IMG/VR virus record: IMGVR_UViG_3300045988_153050
Location: 1-35,601 of that record
DNA: 35,601 bases
Strand: one strand, 5' to 3'
DNA from: a virus
The notes under the pieces were generated by a model that was not told the DNA's origin, did no database searches, and saw only the letters and a list, made by a program, of their open reading frames with translations. The translations under genes were made by a program, and so were the position numbers. Numbering within the stretch: the first letter of the stretch is position 1; the number at the start of each line of letters is the position of its first letter. This document shows positions 2,097-28,846 of the stretch, piece by piece.

Positions 2097-2303
2097 ATGA
2101 TTAACAAGGTTTGGTTAAAAGCTGCGCTTGTTCGGGCTGTGCGGACTATGGCACAGACTGCAATCGCCTGCATCGGCTCGTCTGTGGTGCTGTCCGCCGT
2201 AGACTGGCCCGTTGTACTGTCTGCAACGGTGTTGTCCGGTATCATTTCCCTGCTTACCAGTATCAACGGCCTACCAGAGGTGAAACAGTATGAGCAACAG
2301 TAA
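2097..2303 (+). CDS. Holin (68 aa, two TM segments)
   Basis: Small protein with two hydrophobic helices and a charged C-terminus. Directly precedes and overlaps the endolysin gene. Confidence 0.7.
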   Translation: MINKVWLKAALVRAVRTMAQTAIACIGSSVVLSAVDWPVVLSATVLSGIISLLTSINGLPEVKQYEQQ

Positions 2304-3075
2304 ACTCGTAACCTATACCAGAATCTCCCCGAACAGAACCAGCCCCCGGAACGGCGCTATCCGGGGCGTGGCTATCCACTGCACCGCAGGCGGACGGAAC
2401 AAGACGGCACGGGCCACGGCGGACTTGGGCCGGTTTACCACCTATGATCGGAAAAATGGTGCGTCCTGCAACTACGCTGTCGGCGGGGACGGGTCCATTG
2501 CGTTAGTCGTGCCGGAATCAGATCGGGCATGGTGTACGTCAAACCCGATTGACCATCAAATAGTATCTATTGAGGTGGCAAGCGACATTGACGCACCGAA
2601 CCGGGTAACCGACGCCGCCCTGTCCGCCCTGCTCGACCTGCTGACCGATATTTGCCGCCGGAACGGTATCCCGGCCCTGCTGTGGCTGGGTAGCAAAACC
2701 TACATGGGGCAATGGGACCGGCAGAACATGGTGGTACACCGCTGGACGCGGACAGACAAGGTGTGTCCGGGGGATTACCTGTACAACCTGCATCCGTGGA
2801 TTGCCGGGCAGGTCAACGCCCGCCTTGCGGGCAGAGAGGATGATGATATGGATATTAAGACGATCATCGAACAGCTGACGCCTGAGATGTGCTATGGTAT
2901 CATGGCTGAGGCTATGGCCTATGCGGCCACCTTGCCGGAACCGGAGTGGAGCCAGAGACAAGGACACTGGCAGGCGGCCACGTTGAAAGGTGTCGTTGAC
3001 GGGCAGGAGCCGGAGCGCCCTGTCAAACGGGATGAGCTGGCCGCTGTGCTGGGCCGGTTAGGCCTGCTCAAGTGA
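2290..3075 (+). CDS. Endolysin: N-acetylmuramoyl-L-alanine amidase (Amidase_2/PGRP type) with a C-terminal non-catalytic domain
   Basis: N-terminus ISPNRTSPRNGAIRGVAIHCTAG, plus WCTSNP and VCPG, is typical of amidase_2 endolysins. Located downstream of the holin. Confidence 0.8.
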   Translation: MSNSKLVTYTRISPNRTSPRNGAIRGVAIHCTAGGRNKTARATADLGRFTTYDRKNGASCNYAVGGDGSIALVVPESDRAWCTSNPIDHQIVSIEVASDIDAPNRVTDAALSALLDLLTDICRRNGIPALLWLGSKTYMGQWDRQNMVVHRWTRTDKVCPGDYLYNLHPWIAGQVNARLAGREDDDMDIKTIIEQLTPEMCYGIMAEAMAYAATLPEPEWSQRQGHWQAATLKGVVDGQEPERPVKRDELAAVLGRLGLLK

Positions 3076-3168: not shown

Positions 3169-3211
3169 CCCCCTTGGTGCTTTTTGTAGTACCGAGGGGG
3201 CGCTTCTTTTT
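3169..3211 (+). terminator. Rho-independent terminator
   Basis: CCCCCTTGGT (3169-3178) pairs with ACCGAGGGGG (3191-3200), a 10-bp stem with one G-U pair, followed by cgcttcttttt. Confidence 0.75.
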
Positions 3212-3470
3212 AACTGTTCAAAAACTCGACGAGATTAAAAATCTCCACGTTGTCCCAATCCTCATTGGGTGCATTTCCGCTTTCTTGGCTTTCCTTCTCT
3301 TTATTCAGGAGCCAGTACAGCTTTTCTTCCCCTGTTTCCGGACTTAGCAGGCCGTTAAGCCCCGGATATTTAGCCTGATACATGGGGTTCTCGGTTTCTT
3401 CTTCGCCAAATGGCACGGCGTTCAAATAGCTTCTTTCGCCGATTTCGGTCTCATATACCTTGATTTTCAT
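3210..3470 (-). CDS. Small, strongly acidic hypothetical protein (86 aa)
   Basis: AGGAGGG RBS. Many Glu/Asp and few basic residues. Second gene of the leftward cassette-driven operon. Confidence 0.65.
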   Translation of the reverse strand: MKIKVYETEIGERSYLNAVPFGEEETENPMYQAKYPGLNGLLSPETGEEKLYWLLNKEKESQESGNAPNEDWDNVEIFNLVEFLNS

Positions 3471-3484
3471 TGTATTCCCTCCTG

Positions 3485-3781
3485 TCAGGCAGCGACAAAC
3501 TCGCCGCTCAAGTTGTCCACGAAGCCCAGCTTGATCTCACGCTTGAGGTTCCATTTGTTGGTGTAGATGCGAGTAGCTACATAAGTACGATTTTTGCCGC
3601 CCTTAGCCCAGTTGTTGGCGGTTACACGGTAGTTCCAGCCGGAATCCTCACCGATAACCTCAGCCTCATTCACGGCCTTGGCCAGTGCCCAGGAAGCCCG
3701 AAGAGCGGTGCTCATGTCAACGTGGGCAGTGCGGCGGATGTTCCAAGCGTTTCTCATAATCTCGGACTTGTTGTACTTCAT
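3485..3781 (-). CDS. Hypothetical protein (98 aa; start refined to MKYNKSEIMRNAW)
   Basis: The ATG at 3781 is preceded by the conserved leader GGAAAGGAAGATCACC. The longer ORF-track start would run through the promoter. Confidence 0.65.
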   Translation of the reverse strand: MKYNKSEIMRNAWNIRRTAHVDMSTALRASWALAKAVNEAEVIGEDSGWNYRVTANNWAKGGKNRTYVATRIYTNKWNLKREIKLGFVDNLSGEFVAA

Positions 3782-3893
3782 GGTGATCTTCCTTTCCGCC
3801 CTCTGGGCTGTCCGTTCCTTTACTGTGATTACATTGTACACCTGTTTGTACAATAATGCAATAGGCAAAGCGTACAAATAAGAGTACGGTAAT
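3782..3893 (-). promoter_or_regulatory. Promoter, operator and leader cassette, copy a (leftward)
   Basis: On the minus strand: TTGCAT (3856-3861), 17 nt, TACAAT (3833-3838). The spacer carries TTGTACAA and there are upstream GTAC..TTGTAC half-sites. The leader has a GCCC/GGGC hairpin and an AAAGGAA RBS. Near-identical to copies b and c. Confidence 0.7.
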
Positions 3894-3929
3894 TTAGGCA
3901 CAACGCCAATAACTTGACAGTCCGGGTGC

Positions 3930-3958
3930 TTGACGATTCGAGCGCCTTATACTATAAT
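3930..3958 (+). promoter_or_regulatory. Near-consensus sigma-70 promoter of the orphan small RNA
   Basis: TTGACG (3930-3935), exactly 17 nt, TATAAT (3953-3958). Confidence 0.7.
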
Positions 3959-3964
3959 AAAAGA

Positions 3965-4040
3965 CGGAACGTACCACTCGAAAATTCCGCTTTCAAACAA
4001 AAGAAAACCCACCGGATTTAGCCGGTGGGTTTTTTCTTTT
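3965..4040 (+). ncRNA. Orphan small RNA of about 70-75 nt (two stem-loops)
   Basis: The predicted start lies a few nt after the -10. First hairpin is CGGAA (3965-3969) with TTCCG (3986-3990), then an A-rich linker and a terminator hairpin. There is no ATG or RBS. Confidence 0.55.
4004..4040 (+). terminator. Rho-independent terminator (A-tract upstream, so potentially bidirectional)
   Basis: CCCACCGG (4008-4015) pairs with CCGGTGGG (4022-4029), followed by tttttt ctttt. Confidence 0.8.
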
Positions 4041-4054
4041 CAGGTTGCACAAAG

Positions 4055-4166
4055 TGTTGTACTTGTTTTTGTACAGTCTGCCTATTGCGTTATTGTACAA
4101 ACTGGTATACAATAAAGGCACAGTAAAGGAAACAGACAGCCCGACAGGGTAGAAAGGAAGATAACC
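4055..4166 (+). promoter_or_regulatory. Promoter, operator and leader cassette, copy b (rightward)
   Basis: TTGCGT (4085-4090), 17 nt, TACAAT (4108-4113). TTGTACAA in the spacer and an upstream TTGTAC..TTGTACA. The leader is as in copies a and c. Confidence 0.7.
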
Positions 4167-4490
4167 ATGAAAAAGACTATTAACGGAAAAACATACAACA
4201 CAGAAACGGCTAGAGAGTTGGCCTGTTGGACGAACACCATCCACAGCAGGAATTTTGATCACTACACGGAGACACTGTACCAGCGTCGTGATGGTAGCTT
4301 GTTTATCCACGGTATCGGGGGGCCGGACAGCAAGTACGCAGTGCGGGTAGGAAACGGTTACTCCGGCGGCCAGGACCTCCGTCCAGTATCTAAGGCGGAA
4401 GCCATTGCATCCGTGCGGGAGTATGCAAACACCAGTGAAATCCCGTCAATCCTGGAAGAAATCGAGGGCACAGAGGCGGTGAACGAATGA
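4167..4490 (+). CDS. Hypothetical protein (107 aa), first gene of the acr-aca-like operon
   Basis: ATG directly after the conserved leader. No motif recognised. ATGA overlap with the downstream HTH gene. Confidence 0.65.
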   Translation: MKKTINGKTYNTETARELACWTNTIHSRNFDHYTETLYQRRDGSLFIHGIGGPDSKYAVRVGNGYSGGQDLRPVSKAEAIASVREYANTSEIPSILEEIEGTEAVNE

Positions 4491-4699
4491 TTACCTACAA
4501 CGGATTCAAGGCGAAGCTCGAAGAGCGAGGGGCCAAATACCGGCTGAGAAAAGCCGGTATCAGCCCGACCATCATAGCAAAAGCGTTGAACGGCACAGGC
4601 GGGTTTGAGACCGTGACCATCGACAAACTCTGTAAACTGCTGGGCTGTCAGCCCGGTGACCTAATGGAATATGTGGACGAAGAAGAGGCCGGGGAGTAA
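4487..4699 (+). CDS. Small HTH DNA-binding protein (XRE/Cro-like, 70 aa); candidate regulator of the TTGTACAA cassettes
   Basis: AGISPTIIAKALNGTGGFETVTIDKLCKLLGCQPGDL fits a helix-turn-helix followed by the LCxxLxCxxxDL tail typical of short XRE proteins. Confidence 0.7.
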   Translation: MITYNGFKAKLEERGAKYRLRKAGISPTIIAKALNGTGGFETVTIDKLCKLLGCQPGDLMEYVDEEEAGE

Positions 4700-4719
4700 T
4701 CCCCGGCCTTTGGCTTTTT
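4686..4719. terminator. Terminator shared by convergent genes
   Basis: AGGCCGGGG (4686-4694) pairs with CCCCGGCCT (4701-4709), followed by ttggcttttta. Confidence 0.7.
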
Positions 4720-17311: not shown

Positions 17312-17415
17312 CTAACTCTGTGAGACCATAATAACACATAGGGCTAACTATGTCAACCCCAGAAACAAAATTTTTTGAAATAAAAGTTGACACAGTTAGA
17401 GAGCTGTGCTATTAT
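17312..17415. promoter_or_regulatory. Genetic switch: divergent promoters with three CTAACTnTGTnA operators
   Basis: Rightward TTGACA (17387-17392), 17 nt, TATTAT (17410-17415). Leftward TTGACA (complement of 17351-17356), 17 nt, TATTAT (complement of 17328-17333). Operators at 17312-17323, 17344-17355 and inverted at 17388-17399. Confidence 0.7.
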
Positions 17416-17446
17416 ATATGTGTACCCAAGGGAAAGGGGTGAGAGT

Positions 17447-17824
17447 TTGGAAAAACTAAGCGAACGAATAGCACAGACCCGCAAAACGAATAACCTAACG
17501 CAAGAGGCGTTCGGGGCTAGAATCGGCGGGCTATCTAGGAATTACGTCTGGATGCTGGAAAAGGGCGAACGCGTCCCAAGTGATCGAACCATTGCGGACA
17601 TTTGCCGCGAGTTCGACGTGAGCGAGGAATGGTTACGAAATGGTACCGGCCCGATGTTTGTCGAGAAGACCCGCGACGAAGAGCTAGCTGAGTTTTTCGG
17701 CCATGTGCTGGCCCGTGACGATTTCAAGCAGCGGTTACTAGCTGCGCTGTCCCGGCTGGATGAATCAGAGTGGGCCATGCTAGAGCAAGTAGCCCGGAAG
17801 CTGCTGGACGAGCTAAAAGGGTAA
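17447..17824 (+). CDS. XRE-family (CI-like) repressor, 125 aa, TTG start
   Basis: LTQEAFGARIGGLSRNYVWMLEKGERVPS is a classic XRE HTH. The ORF-track start at 17387 is itself the -35 box, so the start is moved to the TTG at 17447 after the AGGGGTGAG RBS. Confidence 0.8.
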   Translation: MEKLSERIAQTRKTNNLTQEAFGARIGGLSRNYVWMLEKGERVPSDRTIADICREFDVSEEWLRNGTGPMFVEKTRDEELAEFFGHVLARDDFKQRLLAALSRLDESEWAMLEQVARKLLDELKG

Positions 17825-18141: not shown

Positions 18142-19215
18142 ATGATAAAACGGAAAGACGGACGCTGGCAGGAACAAATCAAGCTCCCCGGTATGGAGAA
18201 GCCCAAATACTTTTACGGGCGGACACAGCGCGAGGTGCAACGGAAACTAGCCGCGTGGAGCGTAGAGCGAGAGCAGGAGCAGGCGCAGGCTGTACAGCTG
18301 TGTACCATCGTCGAGCAGTGGGCAGAACGGCACAGGGACGAGGTAGAGGCCACGTCATGGGGGAACTATGAACCCGCCGTGCGGGACGTGTTACAGTGGT
18401 TCCAGGGCCGGGAGATAGGGGACATATACCCGGATGAGATCACGGAGTTCTTACAGGCTATCGCGGCCCGTGGATACACCCGTTGGACAGTCCAGCGGCG
18501 GCGCGATGTACTAACTCAGACATGGGACTACGCAATCGGAAAAAGGCTAGTGCGGTACAACGTGGCCCGGCAATCCAAAATGCCCAAGGGCCTACCAGCT
18601 GGGACCAGAGAGCCGCCCACGCCTGAGCAGCTAGCGATGATCGGGGCCGGGTTCCGGCTACCGTTCGGGCTGTTCGCGGCGCTGGAAGGGTATACAGGCA
18701 TGCGCCGGGGAGAGATACTAGCCCTCCAATGGGACGATATTGACCGGGCCGCGGGAGTGATACACGTTCGGCGGGCCGTGCAGTTTATCGGTGAGGCCCC
18801 GCACACCAAGCCGCCCAAAACGGCGCAGGGAGTGCGAGACGTAGTTATTCCTGCCCCGCTGGACGCCCTGCTAGGAGACCGGAAACAGGGACTAGTATTC
18901 CCTGGCCCTACCGGGGAACTGTTACGCCTGAGCCAATTTAAGAGCGCGTGGCGGACGTGGTGCATATCGGTAGGCGTAGGTACACGGGGCCGGGGTACGG
19001 CAGTAACTACCCACCAGCTGAGGCACTTCTATGCAACCGTGCTATATGATGCAGGTGTCGGGGTAAAGGAAATGCAAACGCTGCTAGGGCACTCCGATAT
19101 ACGGACCACGATGAACATATACACCCACATCATGCTAAGCCGCAAGCAGGCTACCGCTGACAGGCTAAACAAGTATTTGTGTCAAAATCCGGTCAGCGGC
19201 GAAAAAGACGAATAA
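18142..19215 (+). CDS. int: Tyrosine recombinase (phage integrase)
   Basis: C-terminal catalytic signature: R (GMRRGE), HQLRH, LLGHSDIRTTMNIYTH. N-terminal SAM-like domain. Confidence 0.9.
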   Translation: MIKRKDGRWQEQIKLPGMEKPKYFYGRTQREVQRKLAAWSVEREQEQAQAVQLCTIVEQWAERHRDEVEATSWGNYEPAVRDVLQWFQGREIGDIYPDEITEFLQAIAARGYTRWTVQRRRDVLTQTWDYAIGKRLVRYNVARQSKMPKGLPAGTREPPTPEQLAMIGAGFRLPFGLFAALEGYTGMRRGEILALQWDDIDRAAGVIHVRRAVQFIGEAPHTKPPKTAQGVRDVVIPAPLDALLGDRKQGLVFPGPTGELLRLSQFKSAWRTWCISVGVGTRGRGTAVTTHQLRHFYATVLYDAGVGVKEMQTLLGHSDIRTTMNIYTHIMLSRKQATADRLNKYLCQNPVSGEKDE

Positions 19216-19275: not shown

Positions 19276-19321
19276 AAATCCCGTGAAACCGTTGAACGCC
19301 AATGGTTTCACGGGATTTTTG
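19276..19321 (+). terminator. Rho-independent terminator after int
   Basis: AAATCCCGTGAAACC (19276-19290) pairs with GGTTTCACGGGATTT (19304-19318), then tt. Confidence 0.75.
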
Positions 19322-19419: not shown

Positions 19420-19448
19420 ATAGTACACCTGTTTGTACAATGTGTCAA
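19420..19448 (-). promoter_or_regulatory. Strong leftward promoter inside cassette c
   Basis: On the minus strand: TTGACA (complement of 19443-19448), 17 nt, TACTAT (complement of 19420-19425). Confidence 0.6.
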
Positions 19449-19530
19449 TTGCTTTATTGTACAAACAGGTGTACAATGTAGGTACAGTAAAGGAAACGGA
19501 CAGCCCGACAGGGCGGAAAGGAAAATAACT
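19423..19530 (+). promoter_or_regulatory. Promoter, operator and leader cassette, copy c (rightward), with a perfect 19-bp inverted repeat
   Basis: GTACACCTGTTTGTACAAT (19424-19442) and ATTGTACAAACAGGTGTAC (19457-19475). TTGCTT (19449-19454), 17 nt, TACAAT (19472-19477). Conserved leader runs up to the ATG. Confidence 0.7.
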
Positions 19531-19773
19531 ATGAAAAAGAGTGCAGAGACCATGACAAGACAGGCAGAAAGAAGAGTAAGGGCCATGAGCGACAACCTAC
19601 TTCTGGCCGCTTGGGAAAGCACCGAGGACCAGAGAACCAAGGAAAGCGTTATCATTCGCGGGTGGCTGATGGATGAAATCGAGCGTCGGTATCCCGAAGC
19701 GTTTAATGCCTGGCTTGACAACGACGCCTATGATGGAGAACTGAGAGCCTACGTCAACAACAACGCAGAGTGA
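19531..19773 (+). CDS. Hypothetical protein (80 aa)
   Basis: ATG directly after the conserved leader. No recognisable motif. Confidence 0.6.
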   Translation: MKKSAETMTRQAERRVRAMSDNLLLAAWESTEDQRTKESVIIRGWLMDEIERRYPEAFNAWLDNDAYDGELRAYVNNNAE

Positions 19774-19837
19774 CGGCCCACACCGGGCCGGTAATGCGGC
19801 AGGCCGGTCACAAGCCCGGCCAGAAAGGAAAATAGCT

Positions 19838-20086
19838 ATGAAGAAGTTTGAAGGGCTGCTGAGAAGCGAGATTAAGAAGGTTGAGAAGTTCGCGCAGAAA
19901 CGCGACGGCAAGGATTCCAGACTCACCGGCTACGGCTACCATGAGACAGAGGGCGCGATTGACTTCATCACGGTCAGGTGCGAAATCTGCTCCAACGATA
20001 TGCGAGACAGAGAGCGTGACGTTACCCTTTTCGTTTACATCCCGGACCGGCGAAGATCTTTTATCTGTGCGGCACTGAGCCGGTAA
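19838..20086 (+). CDS. Hypothetical protein (82 aa)
   Basis: Preceded by a fourth, partial copy of the leader end (GAAAGGAAAATAGCT, 19823-19837). Confidence 0.6.
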   Translation: MKKFEGLLRSEIKKVEKFAQKRDGKDSRLTGYGYHETEGAIDFITVRCEICSNDMRDRERDVTLFVYIPDRRRSFICAALSR

Positions 20087-20098
20087 CAGCCCAGCAGG

Positions 20099-20165
20099 GC
20101 ACATGAAACGGGGTCGAAGGGTGGGACGAAGCACCCCATTGCAGGCGCATGAAACGGGGTCGAAG
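20099..20165 (+). repeat. Two copies of GC(A/G)CATGAAACGGGGTCGAAG, 46 nt apart
   Basis: 20099-20119 and 20145-20165 differ at one base. Confidence 0.8.
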
Positions 20166-20228
20166 ATTGGAACGATGAACAGGGACAGGAGCCGGGAACA
20201 AGCCGGGTCTGTCCCCGTTCCCTGTTTC

Positions 20229-20483
20229 CTGTTCCATTCCGGTTCCTTCCAGAATCGGGGCATCGTTCCTTTGGTGCCTTGTTCCGGTGTGTTTGTTCCC
20301 TATCGGGTCTGTCGGCAAACCGTTGGCGCTCAACGGTTTTAGCTATTACTGTACCAATAGGAACAATAGGAACAAATAAATAAATAAATAGGTAAATAGG
20401 GCATATAGTATGAATATAGACTAATATACCGCCTTATATAGGGGTTTATATAGAACCCTTGTGCCTTTTGTCCGTTTTGTTCC
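20229..20483. repeat. Dispersed (T)TGTTCC motifs in both orientations around an AT-rich block
   Basis: Direct copies at 20229, 20279, 20293 and 20477; inverted copies (GGAACAA) at 20360 and 20369. AATAGG and aaataaataaataaata tract at 20355-20400. Confidence 0.6.
20317..20341 (+). terminator. Probable terminator of the accessory operon
   Basis: AAACCGTTG (20317-20325) pairs with CAACGGTTT (20331-20339). The GC core CCGTTG/CAACGG is followed by TTTT. Confidence 0.5.
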
Positions 20484-20514
20484 ACCCGGCCCGGACTGGC
20501 CCGGAAGGTCTGGA

Positions 20515-20608
20515 CTGGACTGGTGTGAGTTGGTGTATGAGTTGGTGTATGGGCTGGTCTGGGTTGGTGTACCGGTTGGTGTATGGGATGGACTGGGTTG
20601 GTGTGTGA
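20515..20608. repeat. Iteron-like array with 12-bp period (core GTTGGTGTA)
   Basis: GAGTTGGTGTAT appears twice in perfect tandem (20527-20550), followed by gggctggtctgg, gttggtgtaccg, gttggtgtatgg, gatggactggg and ttggtgtgtga. Confidence 0.8.
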
Positions 20609-28243: not shown

Positions 28244-28846
28244 ATGGCAACTATTGGTCTTTCCAAGCCCTATTACGCCCTGTACAGCGCTACCGGCAAC
28301 ACCGTCACCTACTCCGGCGGCGGTCTGCTGGGCAAGGCAACCGAGCTGTCCCTTGAGTTGGAAGGTGCCGACACTAATGTACTGTACGCAGACAACGCCC
28401 CCGCTGAGAGTGACAACCAGTTTGCAGGCGGTACCCTGAACATCACCACCGACGATCTGCTCCCCGAGCCTATGAAGGCCATTCTGGGCATCACCGAGAA
28501 AGTCCTGGATGAGGCCGCTTCCGGCTCTTCCGACAAATGGCTTGTTTTCGATGATACCCAGGCCATTCCTTACGTTGGTTTCGGCGGCATCATCAAGGCC
28601 AAACAGGGCGGCACGGTGAAGTGGATTGCTTTGGTACTTACCAAGGTACAGTTTACCAACCCCGGTGTGGCCGCCACCACCCAGGGCGAAACCATCGAGT
28701 GGCAGACCAAGAGCTTGAGCGCCACCGTAATGCGTGATGACAGCACTAATCACGTTTGGCAGATGCAGAGCACTCCGCTGGCAACCGAGGCGGCGGCTGA
28801 GGCAGCCATTAAAAAGGCGCTGGGTATTACCGACGTGGCAGCTTAA
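28244..28846 (+). CDS. Major tail protein (phi13-family-like)
   Basis: 200 aa, immediately upstream of the chaperone and tape-measure genes. N-terminus MATIGLSKPYYALY. Confidence 0.7.
   Translation: MATIGLSKPYYALYSATGNTVTYSGGGLLGKATELSLELEGADTNVLYADNAPAESDNQFAGGTLNITTDDLLPEPMKAILGITEKVLDEAASGSSDKWLVFDDTQAIPYVGFGGIIKAKQGGTVKWIALVLTKVQFTNPGVAATTQGETIEWQTKSLSATVMRDDSTNHVWQMQSTPLATEAAAEAAIKKALGITDVAA

Follow-up and report, generated by a model that had tools for sequence, protein, structure and literature searches.

What does the small two-gene operon at positions 4167-4699 of the viral genome IMGVR_UViG_3300045988_153050 do for the phage that carries it? The whole stretch of 35,601 nucleotides (nt) of this IMG/VR record was analysed and is referred to here as the window. 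The first-pass annotation, made from the letters of the DNA alone, had compared the operon with those that encode an anti-CRISPR (Acr) protein together with an anti-CRISPR-associated (Aca) repressor, and had proposed that its helix-turn-helix (HTH) protein acts on two further loci as well. The core promoters of acr-aca operons contain an inverted repeat, often accompanied by a second one, and the regulatory domain of AcrIIA1, which is an example of an Acr-Aca fusion, belongs to the Pfam family HTH_26 (PMC9410906). Our comparisons suggest that 4167-4699 is an acr-aca-like candidate within an autoregulated accessory regulon of three cassettes. The acr-aca-like arrangement itself is already known; here it comes with unclassified proteins and an unusual design in which several loci share one regulatory module.

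A constant HTH gene behind variable cargo genes

The operon, hereafter cassette B, consists of two open reading frames (ORFs) on the plus strand, both present as first annotated. The first, at 4167-4490, encodes a cargo protein of 107 amino acids (aa) with the N-terminus MKKxINGKxYNTETA. The second, at 4487-4699, encodes a 70-aa XRE-type DNA-binding protein; its ATG follows a GAGG by 10 nt and lies within a 4-nt ATGA overlap with the first ORF. The 70-aa protein passes the gathering threshold of HTH_26 (PF13443) by a wide margin, with 45.9 bits vs a cut-off of 22 (E 6.6e-12). A bidirectional intrinsic terminator, a strong hairpin with a T-rich tail, closes the operon at 4684-4711 (previously placed at 4686-4719) and is common to the convergent early operon that ends at 4718.

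A syntenic locus occurs in relatives that we designate L001, L009, L011, L012, L022, L023, L025, and L026, with the endolysin gene on one side and, on the other, the early genes for a 117-aa protein, a 110-aa protein, and dCTP deaminase, which belong to the dCTP deaminase/SNF2 early operon. In all these relatives, an HTH gene of 79-100% identity is the last gene of a rightward cassette, and it is the genes ahead of it that change. They encode a protein of 107 or 108 aa in the window, L001, and L012, one of 67 aa in L009, proteins of 64 and 109 aa in L011, proteins of 65 and 123 aa in L022, one of 121 aa, again with the ATGA overlap, in L023 and L025, and one of 65 aa alone in L026. A constant HTH gene is thereby found behind at least five different cargo arrangements at the same locus, a pattern shared with acr-aca operons.

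The HTH gene is also accompanied by a 20-bp palindrome, TTGTAC-N8-GTACAA, an example of which is TTGTACAAACAGGTGTACAA. Close homologues of the HTH protein are few. Scanning IMG/VR with an HTH alignment gave 80 loci. Homologues of 49-58% identity carry GTAC-N8-GTAC 50-130 nt upstream of their start codons (L113, L114, L121-L128, and L131). In L115 the palindrome lies at -224, with an insertion intervening, and L165, a homologue of 39% identity, carries two copies, at -144 and -109. The same palindrome site is seen in three gene arrangements of the HTH. Besides the cassettes in which the HTH gene comes last, there are loci where it is divergent from a module-driven cassette and three palindromes lie in the shared intergenic region (L018, L113, and L131). 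A solitary HTH gene with a TATAAT promoter of its own, whose -35 region is covered by the palindrome, is found in the L114 group. The motif was counted 27 times per 360 kb of HTH loci, 22 of these less than 500 nt upstream of the HTH gene, vs 9 times per 433 kb of unrelated loci.

Within the palindromes, the half-sites are kept and the central 8 nt vary (AAACAGGT, AAGCTGGT, GCTATCGT, TATCTTTA), as expected for the site of a dimer. More distant HTH homologues have other palindromes upstream (GCACCG-TTTC-CGGTGC in L129), which is consistent with co-evolving autoregulators. There is thus good comparative evidence that the HTH clade recognises TTGTAC-N8-GTACAA and autoregulates, and the HTH protein of the window probably binds such sites. 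If the clade does recognise the palindrome, it should also act on the two other cassettes of the window described below, whose proximal palindromes are perfect.

One promoter module at three loci

With up to three mismatches, TTGTACA-N6-TGTACAA matches the window nine times, vs 0.85 expected, and none of 100 shuffled sequences reached nine. Six of the nine matches fall at three loci, to which the palindrome is confined; one extra GTAC-N8-GTAC at 28634 looks like chance. The earlier statement that the operator recurs at two other loci proved correct, and the recurrence extends well beyond the operator. Cassettes A and C carry it within a whole module of ~120 nt, composed of a distal site, a -35 element, a proximal site overlapping the -10, a leader of ~47 nt with a hairpin, and a Shine-Dalgarno sequence, which is 82% identical across the three loci (3900->3782 on the minus strand for cassette A, 4046-4166 for cassette B, and 19420-19530 for cassette C). 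The copies appear as a 118-nt direct repeat of 84% identity (4059-4176 and 19423-19540) and an 86-nt inverted repeat (3815-3900 and 4046-4131), both spanning promoter, operators, leader, and ribosome-binding site.

The core promoter of cassette B, at 4085-4113 on the plus strand, has the -35 element TTGCGT at 4085-4090 (3/6 consensus positions), a 17-nt spacer, and the -10 element TACAAT at 4108-4113 (5/6), from which transcription would start at ~4120. Its distal operator (TTGTACTTGTTTTTGTACAG, with GTAC-N8-GTAC) occupies 4057-4076, centred at ~-54 from the inferred start, and has an equivalent in every module copy. The proximal operator (TTGTACAAACTGGTATACAA, one mismatch to the palindrome) occupies 4093-4112 and spans the spacer and the -10. 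The conserved 5' leader, 4120-4166, contains the hairpin GCCC-GACA-GGGT at 4139-4150, followed by the Shine-Dalgarno sequence AAAGGAAG at 4153-4160; relatives retain the stem with changed loops (GCC-GAAA-GGC and GCCC-GGAA-GGGC). The operon had been credited with a good promoter containing inverted repeats. The repeats are indeed there, whereas the promoter is poor by consensus, and a consensus promoter scan did not call it because only 3/6 positions of the -35 agree. We nevertheless take it as real, since its position is kept in more than 20 module copies and it aligns with the TTGACA-17-TACAAT promoters of a different phage (L024), where a consensus TTGACA stands, with equal 17-nt spacing, before the same -10 and leader.

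Cassette A reads leftward from a promoter region at 3833-3889 (minus strand), with the -35 element TTGCAT at 3861->3856, the -10 element TACAAT at 3838->3833, a perfect proximal palindrome at 3834-3853, and a distal site at 3870-3889. Its cargo region, 3210-3781 on the minus strand, encodes a 98-aa protein (3485-3781) and an acidic protein of 86 aa (3210-3470). Cassette C is located between the integrase gene and the packaging and attachment (att) region. Its promoter region at 19421-19477 on the plus strand comprises a distal palindrome (19421-19440), the -35 element TTGCTT (19449-19454), the -10 element TACAAT (19472-19477), and a perfect proximal palindrome (19457-19476). The cargo region, 19531-20086 on the plus strand, holds an 80-aa ORF (19531-19773), a Twister-P5 ribozyme (19764-19819), and an 82-aa ORF (19838-20086). 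About a dozen different small cargo genes were returned by one metagenome scan for the module. Because the 67-aa cargo of position B in L009 turns up again under a C-type promoter in L021, cargoes appear to move between such positions, for which the module could serve as a socket.

Might the palindromes be bound by another factor, such as the phage CI protein or a host regulator, or by none, with the HTH protein regulating something unrelated? Overlapping the -10, the right half-site would be kept in any case, and the proximal left half-site of the HTH operon is degenerate or lost in some relatives, as such an explanation would allow. However, the left half-site lies in an otherwise unconstrained spacer and still reads TTGTAC in 13 of the 22 distinct copies, the distal site lies outside the core promoter, and the motif tracks the HTH gene across 39-100% identity and all three gene arrangements. 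In the CI/cro intergenic region, the repeat is an unrelated one (CTAACT/AGTTAG) and TTGTAC is missing. Control of the cassettes by CI is therefore not obvious, and CI was rejected as the operator-binding factor for the same reason. We consider a different binding factor very unlikely.

The two proteins of the operon

Structure and sequence comparison of the two proteins bore out the HTH assignment, as a generic XRE fold, and yielded neither a match of the HTH protein to an Aca in the PDB nor a fold match for the 107-aa protein. The model of the HTH protein, of moderate confidence (predicted local distance difference test, pLDDT, 71), has five helices and generic XRE neighbours, including Xre antitoxins, lambda cI, C.AhdI, and SaPI2 Stl. 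The nearest PDB sequence is VanUg (3tyr, 8.3e-7). With AcrIIA1, the HTH protein shares only the Pfam family HTH_26. A model of moderate confidence with generic XRE neighbours did not place the protein in an Aca family on structural grounds.

The 107-aa protein had been described as lacking a recognisable domain, and we likewise found no match in Pfam, NCBIfam, PADLOC, or the PDB sequences, and only a weak one in PHROG (0.094). Its AlphaFold model is confident (pLDDT 87.9) and consists of eight strands followed by two helices. Foldseek returned a best PDB match of E 0.33, and the matches in BFVD were only to uncharacterised phage proteins. A word-index search gave 14 relatives and the impression of a small family, which an exhaustive profile search overturned: 4,366 clusters at 50% identity were found at E<=1e-3 and 2,431 at E<=1e-10, and a profile of the longer members recovered 5,546 clusters at 90% identity. 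Near-invariant features are a GxGG loop and the N-terminal MKKxINGKxYNTETA. Family hosts include Clostridia, Bacilli, Fibrobacter, Planctomycetota, and Proteobacteria, and members are also present in a haloarchaeal plasmid, a Methanomicrobiales virus, and Lactobacillus and Paracoccus phages. This family (P0024-P0328; loci L029-L108) has no Pfam or NCBIfam model and a predicted fold without a PDB neighbour, and may merit an entry as a new domain family.

Among the best 150 representatives, about one third are stand-alone proteins of ~100 aa and about two thirds carry extra sequence, mostly a C-terminal DNA-binding domain. At least 32 of the 54 extensions examined are ribbon-helix-helix (RHH)-like and several others are XRE-type HTHs; the extension profile matches AvtR, Rv0298, MazE7, CopG, VapB26, and Arc at 3.5e-4 to 7e-3. 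In phages and along the borders of integrated elements, the genes typically lie within arrays of small genes, sometimes as tandem paralogues, and pairing with a window-type HTH is limited to the closest relatives of the 107-aa protein. From the repeated fusion to DNA-binding domains, it seems that the 107-aa domain regularly comes with a transcriptional control of its own. Such fusions fit Acr-Aca fusions and, equally, antitoxins and ligand-sensing regulators.

The 107-aa protein could accordingly be imagined as a partner that modulates operator binding by the HTH protein, in an antitoxin-like or ligand-sensing manner, the two together being a split form of the fused family proteins. The fused majority of the family would be in keeping with this idea, the ATGA coupling suggests matched stoichiometry, and one member, on a Methylobacterium plasmid, carries a HicB-family antitoxin annotation, with a PemK/MazF toxin gene located 9 nt downstream of it. 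Yet at least four unrelated proteins are encoded upstream of the same HTH, the 121-aa cargo also has the ATGA overlap, and in other phages the HTH gene stands alone or divergent. The HTH protein is, moreover, unlike the DNA-binding parts of the fused members; when it was considered as their split-off domain, no similarity was found. Since it is unrelated to the fused domains and serves unrelated cargoes, a split regulator ranks low and is, in our judgement, highly improbable.

A toxin-antitoxin reading fares no better as a general explanation. Among 85 family genes in 80 genome loci, 51 encode proteins of ~100 aa, the neighbours are heterogeneous, and no recurring toxin was seen, as judged by eye without a hidden Markov model scan; L189-L192 do have a HicAB pair in the vicinity, which is distinct from the family gene. 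On these neighbours, assessed by eye, and on two prophage contexts, the reading was rejected. The resemblance to type II antitoxins of the HicB kind lies in the frequent combination of the N-terminal domain with an RHH or XRE-HTH domain and in the one HicB-annotated member beside MazF. The differences are that the operon of the window contains the 107-aa and HTH genes only, neither product matching a toxin family, that no toxin gene is consistently near family members, and that the 107-aa domain matches neither HicB in Pfam nor HicB structures by fold.

Likeness to acr-aca operons and to C proteins

Acr-aca operons have autorepressors of the Aca1-Aca13 or AcrIIA1 type (PMC9410906). They were reportedly also described by Stanley et al. 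in 2019, and Listeria prophage acr loci sit beside lysis genes. The layout on which the first-pass annotation had based its comparison (a promoter with inverted repeats, a small gene, a coupled HTH gene, a terminator, and a lysis-gene neighbourhood) withstood our analysis. The window operon has a small gene followed by a short, co-transcribed HTH gene between a single promoter and a single terminator; its TTGTAC-N8-(G/A)TACAA at 4093-4112 lies within the core promoter, with a second site at 4057-4076; the window-type HTH is constant and the upstream genes variable; the HTH protein belongs to the Pfam family of the AcrIIA1 N-terminal domain; and the operon adjoins the Amidase_2 endolysin gene (2290-3075), in keeping with the Listeria loci. 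It differs in that no cargo of the window matches a known Acr, the HTH protein has no Aca or AcrIIA1 match in the PDB, and one HTH protein appears to serve three dispersed promoters that share the ~120-nt module.

The C proteins of restriction-modification systems, such as C.AhdI and C.BclI, offer a second comparison. They, too, are XRE HTH proteins of 70-80 aa with two palindromes upstream of their own operon, one distal and one in the core promoter. They are structural neighbours of the HTH model (template modelling score, TM, ~0.55), a likeness that concerns the generic fold only, and the weak -35 would fit their activate-then-repress regulation. In contrast to C-protein operons, the window has no adjacent restriction or modification genes, and the operator sequence and spacing differ.

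A proposed regulatory circuit

Which circuit might connect these elements? We propose that the second gene of the accessory operon at 4167-4699 encodes a small XRE/HTH_26 repressor, which presumably as a dimer would bind the 20-bp TTGTAC-N8-GTACAA palindromes. Each promoter would present two sites (~3890-3790 on the minus strand for cassette A, 4057-4113 for cassette B, and 19421-19477 for cassette C), one upstream of the -35 and the other over the spacer and the -10, where occupancy should block RNA polymerase. We infer repression because the proximal site covers the -10. The HTH protein would autoregulate its own operon and repress cassettes A and C in trans, and the six small cargo proteins might be made either in a burst followed by shut-off or steadily at a low level. 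The ~120-nt module would double as a homology socket for the exchange of cargoes from phage to phage and from position to position. The idea that the HTH protein is the trans-acting regulator of all three promoters, put forward at first from the repeated operator, gains support in our sequence comparisons from its invariant position as last gene, the unrelated cargoes ahead of it, and the palindrome near its diverged homologues. The most likely targets of the cargoes, the 107-aa protein included, would be the host or its defences, through anti-defence or exclusion. Taken as a whole, with the HTH repressor, three cassettes, an exchangeable socket, and host- or defence-directed cargoes, we regard this explanation as moderately likely.

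Several observations weigh against it. The main internal weakness is the proximal site of the HTH operon itself, which is the weakest of the three (TATACAA), degenerate in several relatives (TTGTAG, TTGTAT, and CCGTAT), and lost in L009. A weak site of its own would fit an autoregulator that shuts off its targets before itself. The weak -35 (3/6), together with a distal site centred near -54, leaves room for a C-protein-like switch that first activates and then represses, or for an activating distal site. As for the proteins, no Aca or AcrIIA1 chain is among the PDB sequence matches of the HTH protein or its top 50 fold matches, and the 107-aa protein shows no likeness to Acr or anti-defence proteins in NCBIfam and the PDB, nor to a solved fold. 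Its family also occurs in bacterial and archaeal genomes and plasmids, usually with no adjoining HTH gene, and includes the HicB-annotated member with its neighbouring toxin gene. Finally, the one similarity to an anti-CRISPR family, described below, stays far under the curated cut-off.

Are the cargoes directed against host defences?

An anti-defence role is suggested by layout, position, and one sub-threshold similarity, which concerns cassette A. In the family of its 98-aa protein, an N-terminal helical motif (xSEIMxxAWxxxR ... SW) matches the NCBIfam model of AcrIIA3 (NF033948), an anti-CRISPR of Listeria prophages, in four of six members. The best match is a 131-aa relative in L009 (3317-3712, minus strand), which aligns with model positions 1-60 at 3e-7 and 30.5 bits; the 98-aa protein of the window reaches 0.0046 and 17 bits over the first 21 model positions only. 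Both scores stay below the curated cut-off of 70 bits, and the match covers at most the N-terminal half in the L009 relative, the C-terminal half of the cassette A family being different; the gene is, in addition, distinct from that of the 107-aa protein. Members of the cassette A family are found directly upstream of 107-aa family genes in the unrelated genomes L094, L106, and L107. We regard the likeness to AcrIIA3 as a lead towards an anti-CRISPR-type locus and not as membership.

The six cassette proteins and two family members matched no PADLOC defence model. Across the window and its relatives, the cargoes match no PADLOC, Pfam, or NCBIfam family with two exceptions, namely the cassette A family and a 153-aa protein with AP2, zinc-ribbon, and RHH domains in L026. 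Charge and pI of the cargoes, considered as a hint of DNA mimicry, were not informative. That the 107-aa protein itself is anti-defence is a tentative reading of this evidence, possible and somewhat doubtful.

The same circuit could instead control morons that are expressed during lysogeny and serve the lysogen, for example in superinfection exclusion, as prophage-encoded defence, or as fitness factors, with the HTH protein holding expression at a low level. The locations are those typical of morons: the lysis genes are close by or, in the case of cassette C, the integrase gene lies on one side and the att/packaging region on the other. A separate promoter and terminator serve each cassette, independently of the CI operators, and homologues of the 107-aa protein occur at the edges of prophages and mobile elements in bacterial chromosomes. 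What speaks against lysogenic morons is the lack of cargo matches to the PADLOC defence models, the very small size and soluble appearance of all cargoes, which carry neither enzymatic nor membrane signatures, and the weak family link to an anti-CRISPR. We judge morons serving the lysogen to be the main rival explanation, though a rather unlikely one. If the cargoes were ordinary morons, the window would still be a neat case of a small phage regulon controlled in trans.

At the other extreme, the socket under one trans-acting HTH protein might be an exchange platform for counter-defence cargoes, some of them separated by twister ribozymes, and the 107-aa superfamily a new and widespread anti-defence family. 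We hold this to be decidedly unlikely. If it were true, superfamily members, self-regulated by a fused RHH or HTH domain or by a separate HTH protein, would be inhibitors or sponges of host immunity. Should the HTH protein be confirmed as the repressor that we propose, the palindrome and the leader could serve as a search key for cargo genes in the poorly studied phages of gut Clostridia of the Oscillospiraceae type, in parallel with the use of aca genes to find anti-CRISPRs. With the 107-aa protein, experiments could for the first time address a very large family of mobile-element proteins that lacks a name, a Pfam model, and a solved fold.

Genomic setting and additional elements

The same 119 bases occur at both ends of the window, which therefore represents a complete, circularly closed genome of a temperate phage of ~35.5 kb, with 56% G+C. 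The nearest isolated phages are distant Oscillospiraceae and Ruminococcus phages, with only short matches of ~75-85% identity within a methyltransferase region. Structural genes and a holin-like gene precede the Amidase_2 endolysin gene at 2290-3075, which adjoins the short accessory region at 3200-4700 with cassettes A and B. A long leftward early operon, from 4718 to ~17293, encodes dCTP deaminase, a ThyX fragment, a SNF2 helicase, a primase/helicase, an Enc34-type single-stranded DNA-binding protein, and a C5 methyltransferase. The genes for a CI-like HTH_3 repressor (17387-17824) and the integrase (18142-19215) come next, and then the second accessory region at 19420-20090 with cassette C, followed by an AT-rich repeat region, HNH, and terminase.

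Between the divergent promoters of cassettes A and B lies a candidate small RNA unit at 3930-4039 on the plus strand. Its TTGACG-17-TATAAT promoter at 3930-3958 (11/12 consensus positions) is followed by ~40 nt and a strong bidirectional terminator at 4004-4033, with a predicted RNA length of 65-75 nt. The unit is kept in nine sequence variants of related phages, with the core ACCACTC(G)AA, and is absent from L001. It matches no Rfam family, and a search of the phage for targets by complementarity gave only matches of up to 10 nt, which is chance level.

The leader of the module was also encountered in another setting. In L024, a contig (JAAGKN010001035.1) of a different, larger phage, at least five promoters between 3343 and 8531 have the same -10 and leader start (TACAAT...ACAGTAAAGGAAA), together with a consensus TTGACA as the -35 and a different upstream repeat (TTTGTGCAA). 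No HTH homologue was found within the 10 kb fetched of L024, and the comparison thus suggests that the leader is shared more widely than the operator.

The Twister-P5 self-cleaving ribozyme of cassette C (19764-19819, plus strand; RF02684) is full-length, with 63.9 bits vs a gathering threshold of 37.6 (E 3.2e-11). It lies between the two ORFs and overlaps the stop codon of the first. Twister-P5 is also found between the cargo ORFs of the C-type cassettes in L017 (two copies), L018, L021, L027, L113, and L131, at 64-70 bits. Because of this conservation between cargo ORFs in related phages, it seems to be a built-in intercistronic processing site of C-type cassettes.

Downstream of cassette C, the non-coding stretch at 20098-20600 contains a 37-nt direct repeat (20098-20134 and 20144-20180), an AT-rich segment (20340-20460), and tandem GGTTGGTGTA-like repeats (20516-20583). 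Lying between the integrase and terminase genes, the stretch may be the phage attachment site attP, a packaging site, or both. Cassette C itself is flanked by two near-identical hairpin-forming sequences of 23 nt (AAACCGTTG...CAAYGGTTT) at 19286-19308 and 20317-20339, which are 91% mutually complementary. These hairpins are probably the terminators of the integrase gene and of cassette C, and they may mark the limits of an exchangeable unit.

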